64,000 nucleotides of DNA from a virus (Duplodnaviria; Heunggongvirae; Uroviricota; Caudoviricetes). Below, piece after piece: positions 3,101 to 52,646 of the stretch. Positions within the stretch are counted from its first letter, which is position 1. The number at the start of each line of letters is the position of its first letter. A program made the translations under genes and the position numbers. Below the pieces are notes generated by a model. That model was not told the origin of the DNA. It was given only the letters and a program-made list of their open reading frames with translations, and did no database searches. Location: IMG/VR virus record IMGVR_UViG_2690316311_000019; one strand, given 5' to 3'.

Positions 3101-3172
3101 GCCAGACGTTCTGTGTCTTGTAAGGGGGACACTCGAGGTGTAGCTCATGACGTTTTGGGTATATTGCTCTAA
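131..3172 (+). CDS. dmt: Bifunctional DNA methyltransferase: N-terminal C5-cytosine MTase domain (interrupted by an intein) fused to C-terminal Dam-like N6-adenine MTase domain
   Basis: C5-MTase motifs (GGTP|[10 protein letters not shown] motif, [23 protein letters not shown]) and Dam motifs ([21 protein letters not shown]); position and architecture match P1 dmt. Confidence 0.88.
362..1384 (+). other. Intein (341 aa) with LAGLIDADG homing endonuclease, inserted between Pro and catalytic Cys of the C5-MTase PC motif
   Basis: Starts CFTAGH (block A), TTNDHPF (block B), two LAGLIDADG motifs ([23 protein letters not shown]), ends VVHN followed by Cys+1; lower GC than flanks. Confidence 0.85.
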
Positions 3173-3179
3173 TAAATTT
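3163..3179 (+). promoter_or_regulatory. C1 repressor operator (ATTGCTCTAATAAATTT) overlapping dmt stop codon
   Basis: Exact match to the P1 C1 operator consensus. Confidence 0.75.
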
Positions 3180-3353
3180 ATTAGTGTAATATCACCTCAA
3201 TGAATCGTGATTTATAGAGCGATTTAGCTGTTAGCCGCGACAGGCGCGGCGGTAAGCATGGCTGGGCCTAGTCCTCCCAGACAAACCACCGAGTTGCCAG
3301 GTTGACCATGCGCCTAAGTGGCAACGCCGAAGTGCGTTACGAGCGTCCAGTTT

Positions 3354-3844: not shown

Positions 3845-3918
3845 GATGGTGTAGCTCAGCGGTAGAGCAGTTGGCTGTTAACCAACTGGTCGGTAGTTCG
3901 AATCCACCCACCATCGCC
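3845..3918 (+). tRNA. trnA: tRNA-Asn (anticodon GUU)
   Basis: Manual cloverleaf: 7-bp acceptor GATGGTG/CACCATC, D-arm GCTC/GAGC, anticodon loop CTGTTAA, T-loop TTCGAAT, CCA end. Confidence 0.85.
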
Positions 3919-3923
3919 ACTTT

Positions 3924-4010
3924 AGGGGAGTTAGTCCGTAGGGGTAGCGGGGTAGACTGTAAATCTACTGTCATTGCGACTCGGGTGGTTCGACTCCATC
4001 ACTCCCCACC
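3924..4010 (+). tRNA. Type II tRNA-like gene, anticodon GUA (Tyr-like), long variable arm; D-arm atypical
   Basis: Acceptor GGGGAGT/ACTCCCC, anticodon stem GTAGA/TCTAC with loop CTGTAAA, 15-nt variable arm, T-arm GGTGG-TTCGACT-CCATC, CCA end. Confidence 0.55.
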
Positions 4011-4014
4011 ACAT

Positions 4015-4090
4015 TGCCGATTTAGCTCAGTTGGTAGAGCAGTCGCTTTGTAAGCGAATGGTCAGCGGTTCGATCCCGTTAATCGGCACC
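4015..4090 (+). tRNA. trnT: tRNA-Thr (anticodon UGU)
   Basis: Acceptor GCCGATT/AATCGGC, D-arm GCTC/GAGC, anticodon loop TTTGTAA, T-loop TTCGATC, CCA end. Confidence 0.85.
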
Positions 4091-6036: not shown

Positions 6037-6112
6037 GGCCCTTTAGCTCAGTGGTTAGAGCTGGCGACTCATAATCGCACGGTCACCGGTTCAAGTCCGG
6101 TAGGGGCCACCA
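6037..6112 (+). tRNA. trnI: tRNA with anticodon CAU, strongly resembling E. coli ileX (tRNA-Ile2, lysidine)
   Basis: Acceptor GGCCCTT/AGGGGCC, anticodon loop CTCATAA, T-loop TTCAAGT, CCA end; near-identity to ileX by recall. Confidence 0.85.
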
Positions 6113-30905: not shown

Positions 30906-32099
30906 GTGACCTGGGACGATCACAAGAAGAATTTTGCTCGCCTGGCGCGAGATGGTGGTTACACCATCGCACAGTATGCCGCCGAGTTTAATCTTAACCC
31001 TAATACTGCACGTCGTTATCTCCGTGCCTTCAAAGAAGACACCAGGACAGCGGACAGCCGCAAGCCAAATAAGCCAGTCAGGAAGCCACTAAAAAGCATG
31101 ATCATTGATCACTCTAATGATCAACATGCAGGTAATCACATTGCGGCTGAAATAGCGGAAAAACAAAGGGTTAATGCCGTTGTCAGTGCCGCAGTCGAGA
31201 ATGCGAAGCGCCAAAATAAGCGCATAAATGATCGTTCTGATGATCATGACGTGATCACCCGCGCCCACCGGACCTTACGTGATCGCCTGGAACGCGACAC
31301 CCTGGATGATGATGGTGAACGCTTTGAATTCGAAGCTGGCGATTACCTGATAGATAACGTTGAAGCGCGGAAGGCCGCGCGCGCTATGTTGCGTCGGTCC
31401 GGGGCCGATGTTCTGGAAACCACTCTTCTGGAAAAGTCTCTTTCTCATCTCCTTATGCTGGAGAACGCCAGGGATACGTGTATTCGTCTGGTGCAGGAAA
31501 TGCGCGATCAGCAAAAAGACGATGATGAAGGGACTCCGCCTGAATATCGTATCGCGAGCATGCTAAACAGCTGTTCCGCGCAGATAAGCAGCCTGATCAA
31601 CACCATTTACAGCATCCGGAATAACTATCGAAAAGAAAGCCGGGAGGCGGAAAAGCACGCTTTATCTATGGGGCAAGCTGGCATTGTTAAGCTGGCATAC
31701 GAACGAAAGCGTGAAAATAACTGGTCAGTGCTGGAAGCAGCTGAATTCATCGAGGCGCATGGCGGGAAAGTGCCGCCCCTGATGCTGGAGCAAATCAAAG
31801 CCGATCTGCGTGCTCCTAAGACCAATACCGATGATGAGGAAAGGCAAACAGCCGTCGGTGGCCCTTCTCTTGAAGATCTGGACAAAGTTGCGCGAGAACG
31901 GGCCGCCAACCGCCGCGCGGATGCCGCATTGTGGATTGAGCAGCGTAGGGAAGAAATCGCCGATATCGTTGATACAGGCGGTTATGGAGATGTTGATACT
32001 GAAGGTGCATCAAACGACCCATGGCTGGAACAAGACCTGGACGAAGACGAGGAGGAAGACGAAGAAGTTACCCGCAAGCTATACGGGGATGATGATTAA
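30906..32099 (+). CDS. pacA: Terminase small/pac-recognition subunit PacA
   Basis: 397 aa; contains pac hexamer cluster; acidic C-terminus. Confidence 0.88.
31099..31284 (+). promoter_or_regulatory. pac: pac packaging site: seven TGATC(A/G) hexamers in two clusters
   Basis: Hexamers at 31099, 31106, 31118 and 31229, 31241, 31252, 31279. Confidence 0.75.
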
Positions 32100-33583
32100 T
32101 GGCCAGAAGTTGCGTAACGGATCCACGTTGGCGCGAGCTGGTGGCGCTATATCGTTATGACTGGATTGCGGCCGCTGATGTTTTGTTCGGCAAAACACCT
32201 ACCTGGCAGCAGGATCTGATTATTGAGTCTGTGCAGGAACAGGGTAGCAAGACATCTGTTTCGTCTGGTCACGGTACCGGGAAATCAGACATGACTTCTA
32301 TCATGATCATGTTGTTCATAATCATGTATCCCGGTGCCCGAGCCATTATCGTTGCGAACAAAATTCAGCAGGTAATGACCGGTATATTCAAGTACATCAA
32401 GATAAACTGGGCTACTGCCACCAGCCGTTTCCCATGGCTTGCTGATTATTTTGTTCTGACAGAAACCGCTTTCTATGAGGTTACTGGTAAAGGTGTATGG
32501 ACTGTAGTACCGAAGGGCTTTCGTCTGGGAAGTGAAGAAGCTCTCGCCGGTGAACACGCAGATCATCTTCTGTATATTATCGATGAAGCCTCCGGTGTCA
32601 GTGATAGAGCTTTCGGTATCATCACCGGTGCTCTTACCGGACAGGATAACCGCATCTTATTACTGTCACAGCCTACACGCCCAAGCGGCTATTTCTACGA
32701 TACTCACCATAAACTGGCCAAGCGTCCTGGTAACCCTGATGGCGTTTATACGGCGATCACGCTTAACAGTGAGGAATCACCGCTGGTAACGCCAGCATTT
32801 ATCAAAATGAAGCTGGCGGAGTACGGCGGGCGCGATAACCCTATGTACATGATTAAGGTACGCGGCCTATTCCCTAAATCACAGGATGGCTTCCTTCTTG
32901 GACGTGATGAGGTTGAACGTGCAACGCGGCGGAAAGTCAAGATTGCAAAAGGATGGGGCTGGCTTGCATGTGTGGACGTTGCTGGTGGTACGGGACGGGA
33001 TAAGTCCGTTATCAATATCATGATGGTGTCCGGCCAGCGAAATAAACGCCGTGTAATCAACTATCGAATGCTGGAATACACAGACGTTACAGAAACGCAG
33101 CTTGCCGCCAAAATTTTCGCAGAATGTAATCCTGAGCGATTCCCAAATATCACCATAGCGATAGACGGCGATGGCCTGGGTAAAGCAACGGCGGATCTGA
33201 TGTACGAGTATTATGGTATTACCGTACAGCGTATACGCTGGGGTAAAAAGATGCATAGCCGTGAAGATAAGAGCCTGTACTTTGATAAACGTGCTTATGC
33301 CAACGTTCAAGCCGCAGAGGCCGTAAAATCTGGTCGTATGAGACTGGATAAGGGTAATGAAACTATTGAGGAAGCGTCGAAAATCCCTGTAGGGATTAAC
33401 TCCGCAGGTCAATGGAAAGTGATGAGTAAGGAGGATATGAAGAAAAAACTCAACCTGCACTCACCAGACCATTGGGATACATATTGTTTCGCTATGCTGG
33501 CTGATTATGTTCCCCAGGATGAAGTGCTTAGCGTCGAAGACGAAGCGCAGGTTGATGAAGCTCTGGCATGGCTTAATGAATGA
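32099..33583 (+). CDS. pacB: Terminase large subunit PacB
   Basis: 494 aa; Walker A-like GHGTGKS and Walker B LLYIIDEA. Confidence 0.9.
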
Positions 33584-33585
33584 AT

Positions 33586-33602
33586 ATTTGCTCTAATAAA
33601 TT
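33586..33602 (+). promoter_or_regulatory. C1 operator-like site
   Basis: ATTTGCTCTAATAAATT. Confidence 0.6.
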
Positions 33603-33922
33603 GTGTTTTTTAGCTACCGATGTTACATTGAACCTGACCTCTTGCGCCTTGAGGCATTTTCGGTTTATGCTTATCAGGCACCTCATTAAAACGGGTGCCG
33701 GGATTGGCCTCCCGCTTAAGTCTAAGGCGATACAGACGCCGCTCGCGTCTTTTTTTGTATCGGCGTACACGCACACCTCTACAATGGTGGGCTGTATGGG
33801 GCTACCTTCGGGTAGGCTGGTTACCTTGGACGCCAGTAAGGCCAACTCCGTACAGTCCACCGCCAGCAAGATTGGTCTCTTCTGCGGTGGTTACATACCA
33901 ACGTCTAAGGAGGCTGCCAATA

Positions 33923-34143
33923 TGGCTACTATCCCTACCCCAACTCATCCTGAATTTATCTGGCGCTTTTACTCCTGCCAAAAACGTCACTATCACTTCG
34001 TTATTGCACCAACAGAAGATGAGGCCCGCTCTCAGCTTCCTGACGCCCCATGTATTTTCTCTGCCCGTTTTTCCACTGATTCACGCAATTCTCTCAGTTA
34101 CTGGTGCCTCCCTGTTAACGCTTCTGCTCAGGAGGGACTATGA
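33923..34143 (+). CDS. Small hypothetical protein
   Basis: ATG with AGGAGG RBS inside a longer track ORF. Confidence 0.4.
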
Positions 34144-34913
34144 GAACGTCATTAGTCACCCGTGAAGAGATGATCGAGGCAATTGAACAGCACACTGCCT
34201 GTATCAGTACCAGGGATATACCAGGCGTTATTGCCAACTACTTCATGATCACCAAACAACTTTACCGGAGAAAGGACAAGAACGCGGTTCACCGTATCCT
34301 GTTGTCTGATATCCGCGAATACCTGCTCGAACAGGGTCATCTGAATTACGCAACCGTCGCAGCCGAAGCACGCAAGGAGGCACACAGAATGAAAGCAACT
34401 AACGTTAAATCAGAAAAAATTCATGCACCTTCAGTTCAGGAATCGGAGCTGGTGGTTGTTCAGAATCAGTCTGATGAAATTCCCGTTCTGGAATGGCAGG
34501 GAGTGCGTGTAGTGACAACCGAGACTCTTGCTAGAGGGTATGGGACAGAAACAATCCGTATTCGCCAAAATCATCATGAGAACAAAGTACGCTTTGTTGA
34601 AGGGAAGCACTTTTTCAAAGTTGAAGGAGAATCATTGCGCGAGTTGAAGCACAGAGTAGCTTTAAACTACTCTGTAAAAATTGCTCGCAATGTTCGCTCA
34701 CTCCCCTCTGGACAGAACGCGGCGCAGCCCGCCACGCTAAAATGCTCGAAACCGATCAGGCATGGGCATTCTTTGAAAAACTGGAAGACAGCTACTTCCG
34801 ACAAAAAGAACAGCAACCGATCGCAATCCCCCAGACGCTTCCTGAAGCCCTACGCCTGGCTGCCGAACTGGCTGAACAAAAGCAACTTCTGGAACAGAAA
34901 GCCCACCAGCTAA
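34140..34913 (+). CDS. Antirepressor-like protein, N-terminal part (ORF6N/AntA domain); frame-broken
   Basis: IPVLEWQGVRVVTTETLARGYG...FVEGKHFFKVEGESLRELK motif. Confidence 0.6.
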   Translation: MRTSLVTREEMIEAIEQHTACISTRDIPGVIANYFMITKQLYRRKDKNAVHRILLSDIREYLLEQGHLNYATVAAEARKEAHRMKATNVKSEKIHAPSVQESELVVVQNQSDEIPVLEWQGVRVVTTETLARGYGTETIRIRQNHHENKVRFVEGKHFFKVEGESLRELKHRVALNYSVKIARNVRSLPSGQNAAQPATLKCSKPIRHGHSLKNWKTATSDKKNSNRSQSPRRFLKPYAWLPNWLNKSNFWNRKPTS

Positions 34914-35257
34914 ATCAGCAGCTGGTGGCCGCCGCTCCTAAAGTCGATTTTGCCGACCGGGTATCAGTAGCTAAAGGGATCCTGATTGGGAATTTTGCAA
35001 AGGTTGTTGGACTTAAGCAAAACGCGCTGTTTGTCTGGTTACGGGAGAACGGCATCCTGATAGCGTCCGGTGGACGTAAAAATGTGCCGTTCCAGCAGTA
35101 CATCAACGCGGGGTATTTCACGGTGAAAGAAGTGGTGCTGGATGATGAAGATGGCTACCAGATACGGTTGACGCCTCAATTAACGGGTAAAGGCCAGCAG
35201 TGGTTGACGCGTAAACTGCTCGATGCTGGCTTGTTAAAACCGGTGGCAGCTGAATAA
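34742..35257 (+). CDS. Antirepressor-like protein, C-terminal part (KilAC/ORF6C-like); frame-broken
   Basis: LWTERGAARHAKMLETDQAW motif readable in this frame from 34700. Confidence 0.6.
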   Translation: MLETDQAWAFFEKLEDSYFRQKEQQPIAIPQTLPEALRLAAELAEQKQLLEQKAHQLNQQLVAAAPKVDFADRVSVAKGILIGNFAKVVGLKQNALFVWLRENGILIASGGRKNVPFQQYINAGYFTVKEVVLDDEDGYQIRLTPQLTGKGQQWLTRKLLDAGLLKPVAAE

Positions 35258-35264
35258 TGGAAGA

Positions 35265-35286
35265 ATGCCCGGTTGATGCCGGGCAT
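35265..35286. terminator. Hairpin between convergent antirepressor-like gene and c1
   Basis: atgcccgg-ttgatg-ccgggcat. Confidence 0.5.
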
Positions 35287-35289
35287 AAT

Positions 35290-36141
35290 TTATTGCGCGC
35301 TTTCGGGGGTGTCGTTTACTGGCTGCCCCTTCTTGGTTTTACGGCTGCGCGTAACTGATGCGGCTGACTTAACCTTTTTCTCTTCGCGAGTGATGGCAAT
35401 TTGTTTTTTTACATTTTCAATATCTGCCAGGCGATATATTTTTGCTTGCGGCCAGCGGTCGCAGATGATCGGTTCTATGGAGTCATAAAGGCTAAATTTT
35501 GCTTTTTCGAATTCACCGTTGATGATAATTCCATCACGGAGAGTTTCATCGCAGATAAACACGCCACACAGTGGCACATGGTAACTAACTGATTTACCAT
35601 CATTGTAGTTAGGGCTACTGGAAATGTAGTGGACGCGCAGCATTGTTTCGCTAAAGCCGTGTACGCGCATACGGAATTTTTCATCCTCCGGGTACTGCTT
35701 CATTAGCTCTTTTGTTGCTTCCAGGTTCTCTATGTATTTCGCACTGTGCTCATTGATCCCCGCGCTTTTTTGGATGCGAATGTCCTTATCAATCAGATGA
35801 ATAATGCGGCCAGCGGTCATGTTGACGCTGTTCACAGCTTCTGTCTGATAAGTTGTAACCTTACGCACACCGCGAAGGATGTTAGGCACTGGATATAAAA
35901 TAGTCTTTGGGATATTGAGGTCTGGGTACTGTTCCAGTTCCCGCGCCATTAAAGTCCATTTATCAATTTCAGCCTGAATGCTGTCAGTTTCTTTGAACGG
36001 TAGAACGACAACCGGGCGTACAGGACGACCGTCGCTGGCTGTATCAACGTGTTGGGCGCGTGCAACAGCTTTTTTTAGAAAGAGATCCCTGAAGCTGACG
36101 AACTCCTGGTACAGTTGTTCGCCGTAGACATAATTTATCAT
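35290..36141 (-). CDS. c1: C1 repressor of lysogeny
   Basis: 283 aa; recognised as P1 C1 by recall. Confidence 0.93.
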   Translation of the reverse strand: MINYVYGEQLYQEFVSFRDLFLKKAVARAQHVDTASDGRPVRPVVVLPFKETDSIQAEIDKWTLMARELEQYPDLNIPKTILYPVPNILRGVRKVTTYQTEAVNSVNMTAGRIIHLIDKDIRIQKSAGINEHSAKYIENLEATKELMKQYPEDEKFRMRVHGFSETMLRVHYISSSPNYNDGKSVSYHVPLCGVFICDETLRDGIIINGEFEKAKFSLYDSIEPIICDRWPQAKIYRLADIENVKKQIAITREEKKVKSAASVTRSRKTKKGQPVNDTPESAQ

Positions 36142-36236
36142 TGATCCTCCTCCAGAATTGACATGGCCAACAACTCACAGCGGATTACACTGGGAGTTGT
36201 TGGCCACCATTATAGAAGGATCCAACGAAAATAATA

Positions 36237-36253
36237 GATTTATTAGTGCATTT
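36237..36253 (-). promoter_or_regulatory. C1 operator-like site upstream of c1
   Basis: AATGCACTAATAAATCT, 14/17 match. Confidence 0.45.
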
Positions 36254-36461
36254 ATTGTGAGTCTGGCTGGTTAGTGGCCATGAGATATTCGATTGTGTCA
36301 GTGAGATCATCCAGGTCGTCTTGGGTGATGCGGTACTCCTGATTGGATATCTTTGAGTAGTGTTCAGCAATGGCGCGGGCAGCGTCGGTTTCGGCAGGGT
36401 CTACAGATAAAGCGTTAGAGCAATGTCTAACGTCGTCGATGGTTGGTTGAATGAAAGCCAT
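36252..36461 (-). CDS. coi: C1 inactivator Coi
   Basis: 69-aa ORF immediately upstream of c1. Confidence 0.8.
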   Translation of the reverse strand: MAFIQPTIDDVRHCSNALSVDPAETDAARAIAEHYSKISNQEYRITQDDLDDLTDTIEYLMATNQPDSQ

Positions 36462-36699: not shown

Positions 36700-36716
36700 T
36701 AATTTATTAGAGCAAT
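36700..36716 (-). promoter_or_regulatory. C1 operator (Op99-type)
   Basis: ATTGCTCTAATAAATTA on minus strand. Confidence 0.7.
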
Positions 36717-36782: not shown

Positions 36783-36799
36783 ATTGCTCTAATAATTCT
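36783..36799 (+). promoter_or_regulatory. C1 operator
   Basis: ATTGCTCTAATAATTCT. Confidence 0.7.
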
Positions 36800-37285: not shown

Positions 37286-38317
37286 ATGTCCAATTTACTG
37301 ACCGTACACCAAAATTTGCCTGCATTGCCGGTCGAGGCAACGAGTGATGAGGTTCGCAAGAACCTGATGGATATGTTCAGGGATCGCCAGGCGTTTTCTG
37401 AGCATACCTGGAAAATGCTTCTGTCCGTTTGCCGGTCATGGGCGGCTTGGTGCAAGTTGAATAACCGGAAATGGTTTCCCGCAGAACCTGAAGATGTTCG
37501 CGATTATCTTCTATATCTTCAGGCGCGCGGTCTGGCAGTAAAAACTATCCAGCAACATTTGGGCCAGCTAAACATGCTTCATCGGCGGTCCGGGCTGCCA
37601 CGACCAAGTGACAGCAACGCTGTTTCACTGGTCATGCGGCGGATCCGAAAAGAAAACGTTGATGCCGGTGAACGTGCAAAACAGGCACTAGCGTTCGAAC
37701 GCACTGATTTCGACCAGGTTCGTTCACTCATGGAAAATAGCGATCGCTGCCAGGATATACGTAATCTGGCATTTCTGGGGATTGCTTATAACACCCTGTT
37801 ACGTATAGCCGAAATTGCCAGGATCAGGGTTAAAGATATCTCACGTACTGACGGTGGGAGAATGTTAATCCATATTGGCAGAACGAAAACGCTGGTTAGC
37901 ACCGCAGGTGTAGAGAAGGCACTTAGCCTGGGGGTAACTAAACTGGTCGAGCGATGGATTTCTGTCTCTGGTGTGGCTGATGATCCGAATAACTACTTGT
38001 TTTGCCGGGTCAGAAAAAATGGTGTTGCCTCGCCATCATCCACCAGCCAGCTATCAACTCGCGCCCTGGAAGGGATTTTTGAAGCAACTCACCGATTGAT
38101 TTACGGGGCTAAGGATGACTCTGGTCAGAGGTACCTGGCCTGGTCTGGACACAGTGCCCGTGTCGGAGCCGCGCGAGATATGGCCCGCGCCGGAGTTTCA
38201 ATACCGGAGATCATGCAAGCTGGTGGCTGGACCAACGTAAATATTGTCATGAACTATATCCGTAATCTGGATAGTGAAACGGGGGCAATGGTGCGCCTGC
38301 TGGAAGATGGTGATTAG
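37286..38317 (+). CDS. cre: Cre tyrosine recombinase
   Basis: 343 aa, near-identical to canonical Cre (MSNLLTVHQNLPALPV...). Confidence 0.98.
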   Translation: MSNLLTVHQNLPALPVEATSDEVRKNLMDMFRDRQAFSEHTWKMLLSVCRSWAAWCKLNNRKWFPAEPEDVRDYLLYLQARGLAVKTIQQHLGQLNMLHRRSGLPRPSDSNAVSLVMRRIRKENVDAGERAKQALAFERTDFDQVRSLMENSDRCQDIRNLAFLGIAYNTLLRIAEIARIRVKDISRTDGGRMLIHIGRTKTLVSTAGVEKALSLGVTKLVERWISVSGVADDPNNYLFCRVRKNGVASPSSTSQLSTRALEGIFEATHRLIYGAKDDSGQRYLAWSGHSARVGAARDMARAGVSIPEIMQAGGWTNVNIVMNYIRNLDSETGAMVRLLEDGD

Positions 38318-38334
38318 CCGTCAATGTATAATAA

Positions 38335-38351
38335 ATTGCTCTAATTATTTG
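38335..38351 (+). promoter_or_regulatory. C1 operator
   Basis: ATTGCTCTAATTATTTG. Confidence 0.65.
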
Positions 38352-38810: not shown

Positions 38811-38827
38811 ATTGCTCTAATTAATTG
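38811..38827 (+). promoter_or_regulatory. C1 operator overlapping putative ref promoter (-10 TATAAT at 38829-38834)
   Basis: ATTGCTCTAATTAATTG followed by gatataat. Confidence 0.65.
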
Positions 38828-47994: not shown

Positions 47995-48850
47995 CAGGGG
48001 GGATTTTCTCAGCCATCTCTGCCGGATGTTTACGCATCAGCACCACATCAACGACCGTACTGGTCCCGTTTGCGTCAAAAGTACCGGTAGGCAAGCGGTG
48101 AGCGCCAAGAAATTCAGCTTTACGGGATAGGCGCAGGCGTAACCGCTTCATGTTTGAACCTGAAACAATGGACGGCGGCACAATCACACACATGAATCCG
48201 CCAGGCTTTATCTTGTCCAGCATGCGGAGCATGAAGTAAGAACCCATGTCCGTTTCTTCTGCGTAAGGCTTATCGATGTTGCGTGTGTTATCACGACCGC
48301 CGAACGGAACGTTACCCACAACATGGTCGAATGAATCGTTAGGCGTGCTTATAGCCAGCTGTTCGAACGGGGAAATCTGTACGCTGTCTTCCGGGTGTAA
48401 CAACTGGTTTATACGACCGGAAACACTGCTGATCTCAGTCGCGGTCATCACCGTACCAACCGGTTTTGTCTCATTAAAAACGCCGGTTCCCGCCGATGGT
48501 TCCAGAGTGTTACCTACGTCCGCGCCGTAGAGCTTCATGATCTCCCAGACGCCTTCAGCGATCGGCTTTGGTGTGTAATATTCGGAGACGGCCCCGCCAA
48601 TGCCACCTTCACCGGTGTACCCAGCCAGGATCTGGCGCTGTTCATCTGTCAGTGTCGCGCCGTCCACCAGCGAATTAAGCAAATCTATCGCCTTCTGATT
48701 CGCCTCCCGGCGCAGTCGGTCATAGCTTTTGCCTTCCACCTTTTCCACGCCGTATTTAATCGGCGCCCGGTGAGATGTTATTGCCCTAATGTATTTCAAT
48801 ATTTCGCTGACACTTGAACAGCGAAACACCCCCATAGATAGCTTGTTCAT
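47987..48850 (-). CDS. darB: DarB N-terminal 287 aa (N6-adenine methyltransferase-like region)
   Basis: MTase-like NVPFGG motif; ends at stop inside a C6 tract. Confidence 0.8.
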   Translation of the reverse strand: MNKLSMGVFRCSSVSEILKYIRAITSHRAPIKYGVEKVEGKSYDRLRREANQKAIDLLNSLVDGATLTDEQRQILAGYTGEGGIGGAVSEYYTPKPIAEGVWEIMKLYGADVGNTLEPSAGTGVFNETKPVGTVMTATEISSVSGRINQLLHPEDSVQISPFEQLAISTPNDSFDHVVGNVPFGGRDNTRNIDKPYAEETDMGSYFMLRMLDKIKPGGFMCVIVPPSIVSGSNMKRLRLRLSRKAEFLGAHRLPTGTFDANGTSTVVDVVLMRKHPAEMAEKIPPGG

Positions 48851-52629: not shown

Positions 52630-52646
52630 ATTGCTCTAATTAATTT
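52630..52646 (+). promoter_or_regulatory. C1 operator upstream of ssb
   Basis: ATTGCTCTAATTAATTT. Confidence 0.7.

Follow-up and report, generated by a model that had tools for sequence, protein, structure and literature searches.

A frameshifted antirepressor gene in a second immI-type cassette between pacB and c1 of a P1-like phage-plasmid

RESULTS AND DISCUSSION

The gene found next to c1 in the window (the whole 64,000-nt stretch analyzed here, which belongs to a P1-like phage-plasmid) is very probably the ant gene of a second immI-type cassette, located at 34140 to 35257 and turned recently into a pseudogene by the deletion of a single nucleotide, while the c4 and icd genes of the same cassette are intact. 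The cassette is an insert carried by a sub-lineage of P1-like phage-plasmids. The deletion, as judged by its presence in independent assemblies, is a genuine, inherited minority allele. The coordinates of all the features mentioned are collected in Table 1.

TABLE 1 Features of the pacB-c1 region and its surroundings in the window
Feature	Position	Strand	Description
pacA	30906-32099		ORF list
pacB	32099-33583		ORF list
Predicted C1 operator TTTGCTCTAATAAATTG	33587..33603	+	15/17 to consensus ATTGCTCTAATAAATTT; aligns with P1 Oc4
Candidate sigma-70 promoter	33601-33629	+	TTGTGT-17-TACATT; where P1 has P2c4
Candidate sigma-70 promoter	33649-33677	+	TTGAGG-17-TATCAG; where P1 has P1c4
isrK-type leader	33678..33755	+	Rfam RF01394, 60.8 bits (gathering score, 50)
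a1 TTGGCCT	33704-33710	+	In isrK-type leader
b1 GTCTAAGG	33720-33727	+	In isrK-type leader
Terminator-like hairpin	33734-33750, then T run	+	In isrK-type leader; terminator scan
C4-type antisense RNA gene	33780..33867	+	Rfam RF01695, 75.9 bits (gathering score, 45), full length (1-87/87)
b' CCUUGGAC	33824-33831	+	Loop of C4 RNA
a' AGGCCAA	33839-33845	+	C4 RNA
a2 TTGGTCT	33872-33878	+	One G.U pair with a'
b2 GTCTAAGG	33903-33910	+	Overlaps icd Shine-Dalgarno AAGGAGG
icd-like gene	33922..34143	+	73 aa, intact; WP_000201261.1, "host cell division inhibitor Icd-like protein"
ant (ant1/ant2-type antirepressor), probable pseudogene	34140..35257	+	1118 nt; "frameshifted" in RefSeq on identical span
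ORF1	34140..34913	+	257 aa: 188 native residues, then 69-residue out-of-frame tail
ant2-type start	34389..34391	+	In-frame ATG, Shine-Dalgarno AAGGAGG 8 nt upstream, 249 nt after ant1 start
1-nt deletion site	34703..34704	+	A of Thr189 codon ACC lost; leaves CTC-CCC
CCCC run	34703..34706	+	Seen in window sequence
ORF2	34742..35257	+	171 aa, -1 frame; KilAC (Pfam ANT) C-terminal part
GC-rich terminator-like hairpin	35265..35286		Between convergent ant and c1; terminator scan
c1 repressor gene	35290..36141	-	283 aa, intact; RefSeq "phage repressor protein C1" in identical relatives
coi	36252-36461	-	ORF list
cre	37286-38317		ORF list

A second immI-type cassette between pacB and c1

The gap between pacB and c1 amounts to 1,706 bp in the window versus 24 bp in P1, in agreement with the sequence-only reading, which had pointed out that an antirepressor module next to c1 is not part of the P1 map. 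By sequence comparison, the insert is a paralogue of the P1 immI region, a complete second immI-type cassette of which the window carries a defective member. Of the features that define such a cassette, the following are found: a C4 gene upstream of icd, complementarity between the a and b elements, a C1 operator, and an icd-ant overlap with a nested ant2 start. The operator lies at the Oc4/Op51 position of P1 immI and is one of 15 C1 operator-type matches in the window, against 0.33 expected by chance. A generic promoter scan upstream of c4 returned nothing that reached the threshold, and we infer the two candidate promoters from how their positions line up with those of the promoters mapped in P1.

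The a' element of the C4 RNA is complementary to TTGGCCT at 33704 and to TTGGTCT at 33872, while b' CCUUGGAC pairs with GTCTAAGG at both 33720 and 33903, with one G.U pair each, and the layout of a2 and b2 matches that annotated in P1. The icd product and P1 Icd share 80% identity over 66 aa (E 3e-41), and exactly the same protein was found on at least 1000 contigs. The icd stop overlaps the ant start in the tetranucleotide ATGA (34140-34143). Downstream, the product of the intact c1 gene is the presumed target of the antirepressor.

When P1 Ant1 and Icd were searched against the 64-kb window by tblastn, this locus alone was retrieved; the canonical immI is either outside the 64 kb or absent. 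One of the plasmids carrying the same deletion, pF1273-3, has a further icd-ant pair, also intact as regards both genes, close to dnaB/ban. A module of this kind beside c1 is common and already known: comparison of the pacB-c1 interval showed that at least 80% of the insert is present in 290 PLSDB plasmid records, and two short orfs plus an antirepressor gene inserted between pacB and c1 have been described for pTZ20_1P and RCS47 (PMC6906374).

An antirepressor gene split by a one-base deletion

The split of the gene is real and goes far beyond chance. As had been noticed from the letters alone, an ORF6N domain (34140..34913) and a KilAC domain (frame open from 34625, first ATG at 34742) are found in different frames, and both the coordinates and the Pfam searches agree with this. 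The frame of ORF2 begins after a TGA stop at 34622-34624. The native part of ORF1 comprises the Ant1 N-terminal extension and ca. 70% of the ORF6N domain, inside which the frame shift falls; this domain is detected at residues 116-176, covering profile positions 3-62 of 86 (E 7.9e-14), while ORF2 contains a complete ANT/KilAC domain (E 2.9e-31). As encoded in the window, no single polypeptide has both ORF6N and KilAC above the Pfam gathering score, and the window has no uninterrupted ant ORF ending in KilAC, which the relatives do have. The addition of one base at 34703/34704 fuses both ORFs into a 372-aa protein in which ORF6N extends over positions 3-86 of 86 (E 2e-19) and KilAC is complete, so the proposal of a single antirepressor gene, cut into these two ORFs by a one-nucleotide frameshift, holds. 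With an A as the added base, the domains score 70.1 and 107.9 bits (ORF6N PF10543 and KilAC PF03374, respectively). The ant gene of intact relatives has 1119 nt (372 codons), and it is the one-nucleotide deletion at 34703/34704 that cuts KilAC off from the ant start codons.

The identity of the missing base differs from that first proposed, a C in the C4 tract. All five relatives aligned (673R5, E2855, CP059910, CP042894, and CP034786) have an extra A at 34703/34704 and read CTCACCCTC at the site, that is, CTC-ACC-CTC (Ser-Leu-Thr189-Leu-Trp). The deletion (pseudogene) allele is thus CTCCCCTC, the intact allele is CTCACCCTC, and the true protein junction is ...NVRSLTLWTERG... and not ...SLPLW.... 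In pE2855-2, for example, ant has 372 codons and reads ...RSLTLWTERG.... The 372-aa protein repaired with A is an exact public sequence found on 968 contigs and a RefSeq MULTISPECIES protein, whereas the C-repaired version (SLPLW) was absent among about 15 billion public proteins. In the ancestor, the lost A was a single base with C's on both sides. Since the intact relatives carry an A between C's, the C4 run is the scar of the deletion rather than an earlier homopolymer.

A genuine minority allele

A 71-nt query centered on the site matched at 100% in seven complete Escherichia coli genomes (O157:H7 F1273 and TX 376-2; EH2252, EH031, UTAK-13, and OkiPb01717; and O103:H2 CEC12044), which come from bovine and human isolates from the USA and Japan. 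Another 124 complete-genome records matched at 95 to 99% identity, and every one of those listed has a 72-nt span, corresponding to the version with one more base. The deletion allele is therefore in the minority, with 7 of the 131 complete E. coli genome records that cover the site query; the split in PLSDB was similar in kind (4 of 83 records with the deletion versus 79 others). The 257-aa frameshift product was found unchanged on 75 contigs (99 index blocks), among them NCBI drafts and contigs that Logan assembled from independent SRA runs. Plasmids pF1273-3 and pO103_CEC12044_1 match the insert at 100% identity over its whole 1,706 bp. Over 24 kb, the carriers are 98.0 to 99.3% identical to the window with 86% coverage, and the best matches among complete E. 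coli genomes covered either 95% of the 24-kb query at 96.9% identity or 86% of it at 99.3%. From these comparisons, the plasmid backbone is mosaic, and the allele sits in diverged backbones. Over a 1707-nt span, the nearest intact alleles share 99.9% identity with the window and differ essentially by the indel alone, indicating that the lesion is young.

A sequencing or assembly error in a genome that actually has an intact gene was one of the options contemplated by the sequence-only reading, and we consider it extremely unlikely. Errors in assemblies are most commonly indels of a single base, and the related phage record 673R5 is riddled with indels: it has the A at the site, but another base is missing ca. 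25 nt farther downstream, and the annotation divides its c1 into three pieces. The base call in the window itself rests on identity to other assemblies. Such an error would nevertheless have had to arise identically in the seven complete genomes from isolates of two countries, in the NCBI drafts and in the Logan assemblies of independent runs, and in backbones as diverged as those described above; besides, the lost base was a lone A between C's, outside any homopolymer. Given these matches, an assembly error is for practical purposes excluded, and the deletion is, on the same comparisons, a genuine, inherited minority allele. It is the pseudogene option that is borne out: in RefSeq, exactly these 1,118 nt carry the label [quoted passage not shown] The pseudogene is in this sense already flagged, and there is nothing new in kind about it.

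Expected function of the cassette and loss of the antirepressor

In P1 and P7, the C4 RNA pairs with a2/b2 and blocks the translation of icd and of the coupled downstream ant; when this block is relieved, Ant1/Ant2 bind C1 and repression is lifted. By analogy, in the intact relatives of the window cassette, C4 would pair with a2/b2, blocking icd translation and hence ant expression, and relief of the block would allow Ant to bind the C1 repressor, with derepression of the lytic genes. The 56% identity to P1 Ant1 suggests that the window-type Ant would bind and inactivate C1.

In the window, translation from either of the ant starts is out of frame after Leu188, and the products of the ant1 and ant2 starts, which are the only well-initiated ones, lack KilAC entirely and the final quarter of ORF6N. 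The first ATG of ORF2 has no Shine-Dalgarno sequence (it is preceded by GCCACGCTAAA|ATG), making a separate expression of KilAC unlikely. The truncation of the well-initiated products, together with a KilAC part without a ribosome-binding site, indicates that ant is a recent pseudogene. The domain truncation points to a dead antirepressor protein, with c4 and icd untouched, but the truncated Ant1 N terminus with its partial ORF6N could retain some activity.

Two other readings would keep the gene functional. One of them is programmed or leaky -1 frameshifting, in which a P-site tRNA-Pro would slip on C_CCC (34703-34706) to yield a full-length Ant with Thr189Pro. Pairing of the CCC anticodon would be kept after the slip, the frame entered by the slip is open from 34625, and the product would be the very protein that was written out when the C tract was first proposed as a slippage site. 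Yet the 0-frame sequence is CTC CCC TCT, with only a C_CCC tetramer and no X_XXY_YYZ slippery heptamer at the frame junction, and the downstream RNA is unstructured: the 96 nt from 34695 to 34790 gave a minimum free energy of -21 kcal/mol, the average for the shuffles being -22.6 (z = +0.51), and 143 of 200 shuffles folded at least as well. The two-frame layout is not conserved either, the relatives being single ORFs; the allele is young, leaving no time for a signal to evolve, and the SLPLW protein is missing from the public data. Four C's are also too few for appreciable transcriptional slippage. We regard this reading as very unlikely. Programmed frameshifting is unsupported, and the idea of a slippage site does not fit the loss of a lone A, while tRNA-Pro may slip by -1 on C_CCC spontaneously at a trace or low level.

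The other reading holds that there are two functional overlapping genes, with the ORF6N and KilAC proteins made separately and acting together. Both ORFs are long, and some annotations have ORF6N-only and KilAC-only products. However, most of the short cluster entries are labelled "partial" by their sources, and CP059910, which is annotated as split, has an uninterrupted 372-codon ORF. The ORF6N that ORF1 would provide stops at profile position 62 of 86, and 69 nonsense residues come after it; the ATG at 34742, besides its lack of a Shine-Dalgarno sequence, sits 171 nt ahead of the ORF1 stop and is thus uncoupled from ORF1. The homologues examined are single ORFs and not two overlapping genes, the case in which the frameshift would have had to be abandoned. 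A two-gene arrangement is, hence, exceedingly improbable, and a recent pseudogene derived from a single antirepressor gene is the reading that we retain.

Comparison with known systems

The order and spacing of the parts are the same in the window cassette and in the immI of P1/P7. In P1, the starts of ant1 and ant2 are at 48688 and 48937, respectively, an offset of 249 nt that is identical in the window. P1 Ant1 and the repaired window Ant are 56% identical over their full length (E 7e-131), with conservation of the Ant1-specific N terminus and a KilAC C terminus ca. 90% identical, but the center of P1 Ant1 has no Pfam hit, whereas that of the window Ant is ORF6N. The location is also different, since the P1 immI sits between sim and kilA and the window cassette between pacB and c1. 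Further differences are the C4 recognition sequences (TTGACAG/GTTAGTGA in P1; a TTGGCCT and b GTCTAAGG in the window), the leader, of the isrK type (RF01394) in the window and of the c4-a1b1 type (RF03163) in P1, and the frameshift in the window ant, unlike in P1 immI.

The same gene is found at the same locus, uninterrupted in all cases, in RCS47 (CDN90860.1), JL22 ("roi," UOL51070.1), pE2855-2 (WP_062887669.1), and pTZ20_1P. The E2855 Ant and the A-repaired window protein differ at only 5 of 372 residues. The JL22 and RCS47 genes have 370 and 371 codons, are annotated as roi and ant, respectively, and contain both domains, with diverged ORF6N cores and other C4 specificities.

There is also a likeness to the isrK-orf45-anrP locus of Gifsy-1 in Salmonella, where, in the account of the locus given in PMC4825925, an isrK-type leader small RNA ends in a Rho-independent terminator and a small upstream ORF is translationally coupled to the antirepressor gene, the stop of the former and the start of the latter overlapping in AUGA. 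The part of that source dealing with the locus describes neither a C4 RNA nor a C1 operator there; IsrK is presented as an activator in trans, and the small ORF is orf45 and not an Icd homologue (PMC4825925). Immunity RNAs of the isrK and C4 types and the coupling of an upstream ORF to the antirepressor are established in P1/P7, P4, and Gifsy-1 (PMC4825925, PMC10111431).

Other lesions in ant and implications

Other lesions were observed in the ant genes of related plasmids. CP042894 and CP034786 have a premature stop, Q207* (34757 C>T), while an IS1203 in pO111_2 and an ISSen4 in CP060066 are each annotated between the icd coding sequence and a 5'-shortened ant coding sequence. In all four records icd is annotated as intact. 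Together with the loss of the A at Thr189 (75 contigs), these make four independent ant lesions. CP059910, with its split ORF6N/KilAC annotation, was considered as an additional lesion and rejected, as its ORF is uninterrupted.

Either a relaxation of selection or selection acting against a second inducer may lie behind the other ant lesions. One could go further and suppose that ant has been knocked out repeatedly and independently, with c4 and icd left intact, because there is selection to keep the superinfection immunity provided by the C4 RNA and to drop a second, orthogonal induction trigger, although we consider this doubtful. If it were true, plasmid prophages, among them those of Shiga toxin-producing E. 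coli, would be domesticating the cassette into an immunity module that works by RNA only. The pseudogene is an ordinary one and matters little beyond its correct annotation; the plasmid prophage in the window is left without one possible antirepressor and may be slightly harder to induce.

C4 specificity across alleles

The context is of modest value: the insert between pacB and c1 amounts to an entire second immI module whose C4 RNA has a specificity of its own, and this helps explain heteroimmunity among cocirculating P1-like phage-plasmids. The specificity alleles could also serve as natural orthogonal antisense-RNA immunity switches. Across the window, RCS47, and JL22, b' covaries three-way with b1 and b2: the window has b' CCUUGGAC with b1 = b2 = GTCTAAGG, RCS47 has b' CCUUUGAC with b1 = b2 = GTCAAAGG, and JL22 has b' CCUUUUGC with b1 = b2 = GCAAAAGG. 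As for a', it is AGGCCAA in the window versus GUCUCAA in RCS47 and JL22, and the a1 and a2 sites match accordingly. These compensatory changes in the a and b elements argue for an antisense mechanism that is at work and for a cassette that comes in several immunity specificities.

C4 RNA specificity and modular structure of the antirepressor

The insert between pacB and c1 is a full second immI cassette with a C4 RNA specificity that differs from that of P1. The window (33587-34143) was compared with the loci of the P1-like phages RCS47 and JL22 (L002 and L003, 1584-1960). In these three alleles (window, RCS47 and JL22), the b' loop of the C4 RNA and both b targets vary jointly, reading GTCTAAGG, GTCAAAGG and GCAAAAGG, and the a' segment varies in the same way with a1 and a2. 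These joint changes are naturally occurring compensatory covariation of an antisense RNA with both of its target sites. The ant genes of the same three elements are nearly identical in the Ant1 N-terminus and KilAC parts, but the ORF6N-coding center that these flank (34540-34700 in the window) is strongly diverged. P1 Ant1 has an unrelated center without any match in Pfam. These differences are modular domain swapping inside the antirepressor.

An ORF in the icd frame runs across the RNA genes of the cassette (see the table). It contains a match to Pfam Phage_ASH, and RefSeq lists its 5' part as a pseudogene ("ash family protein, incomplete"). Rather than being a protein gene, this ORF seems to be an artifact of translating conserved RNA genes.

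Features located in the window
Feature	Position	Strand	Remarks
187-aa ORF	33580-34143	+	same frame as icd; covers isrK-like element and C4 RNA gene
tRNA genes (three adjacent)	3845-4088	+	
tRNA gene (fourth)	6037-6109	+	
C1 operator matches	3163-3190		overlapping inverted pair
C1 operator match	36236-36252		example
C1 operator match	36700-36716		example
C1 operator match	36783-36799		example
C1 operator match	38335-38351		example
C1 operator match	38811-38827		example
C1 operator match	52630-52646		example

Other ant alleles and their records

A nonsense change at ant codon 207 (Q207*, equivalent to 34757 C>T in the window) was found in CP042894 and CP034786. In the annotations of pO111_2 and CP060066, two different IS3-family insertions (IS1203 and ISSen4, respectively) separate icd from an ant CDS shortened at its 5' end. 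All three lesions inactivate this ant gene independently of one another, and icd is annotated as intact in the four records. RefSeq divides the ant copy of NZ_CP059910.1 (L010, 771-1889) into a partial ORF6N pseudogene and a separate 110-aa KilAC protein, an annotation at odds with the DNA, which holds an uninterrupted 372-codon ORF.

Phage vB_EcoM-673R5 (ON470615.2; L001, 1500-4140) has the A at the deletion site of the window allele, but a different base is missing ca. 25 nt downstream, and the annotation of c1 in this phage falls into three pieces. Uncorrected indel errors are probably present in this record, which is unfit as an allele reference. Plasmid pF1273-3, a carrier of the deletion allele, has an additional intact icd-ant pair (L009, 24031-25283) adjoining dnaB/ban. 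The Logan contigs with this allele (L017 to L019) stop inside the KilAC-coding part; interruption of the assembly by a near-identical KilAC copy at another place would have this effect.

tRNA genes and C1 operators

Among the four tRNA genes, the one at 3925-4008 had a lower score (41.9 bits); in the related plasmid pF1273-3 the tRNAs carry the annotations Asn, Tyr, Thr and Ile. Throughout the window there were 15 matches to the 17-bp C1 operator consensus (0.33 expected by chance), some of them clustered around c1/coi/cre, as in P1.
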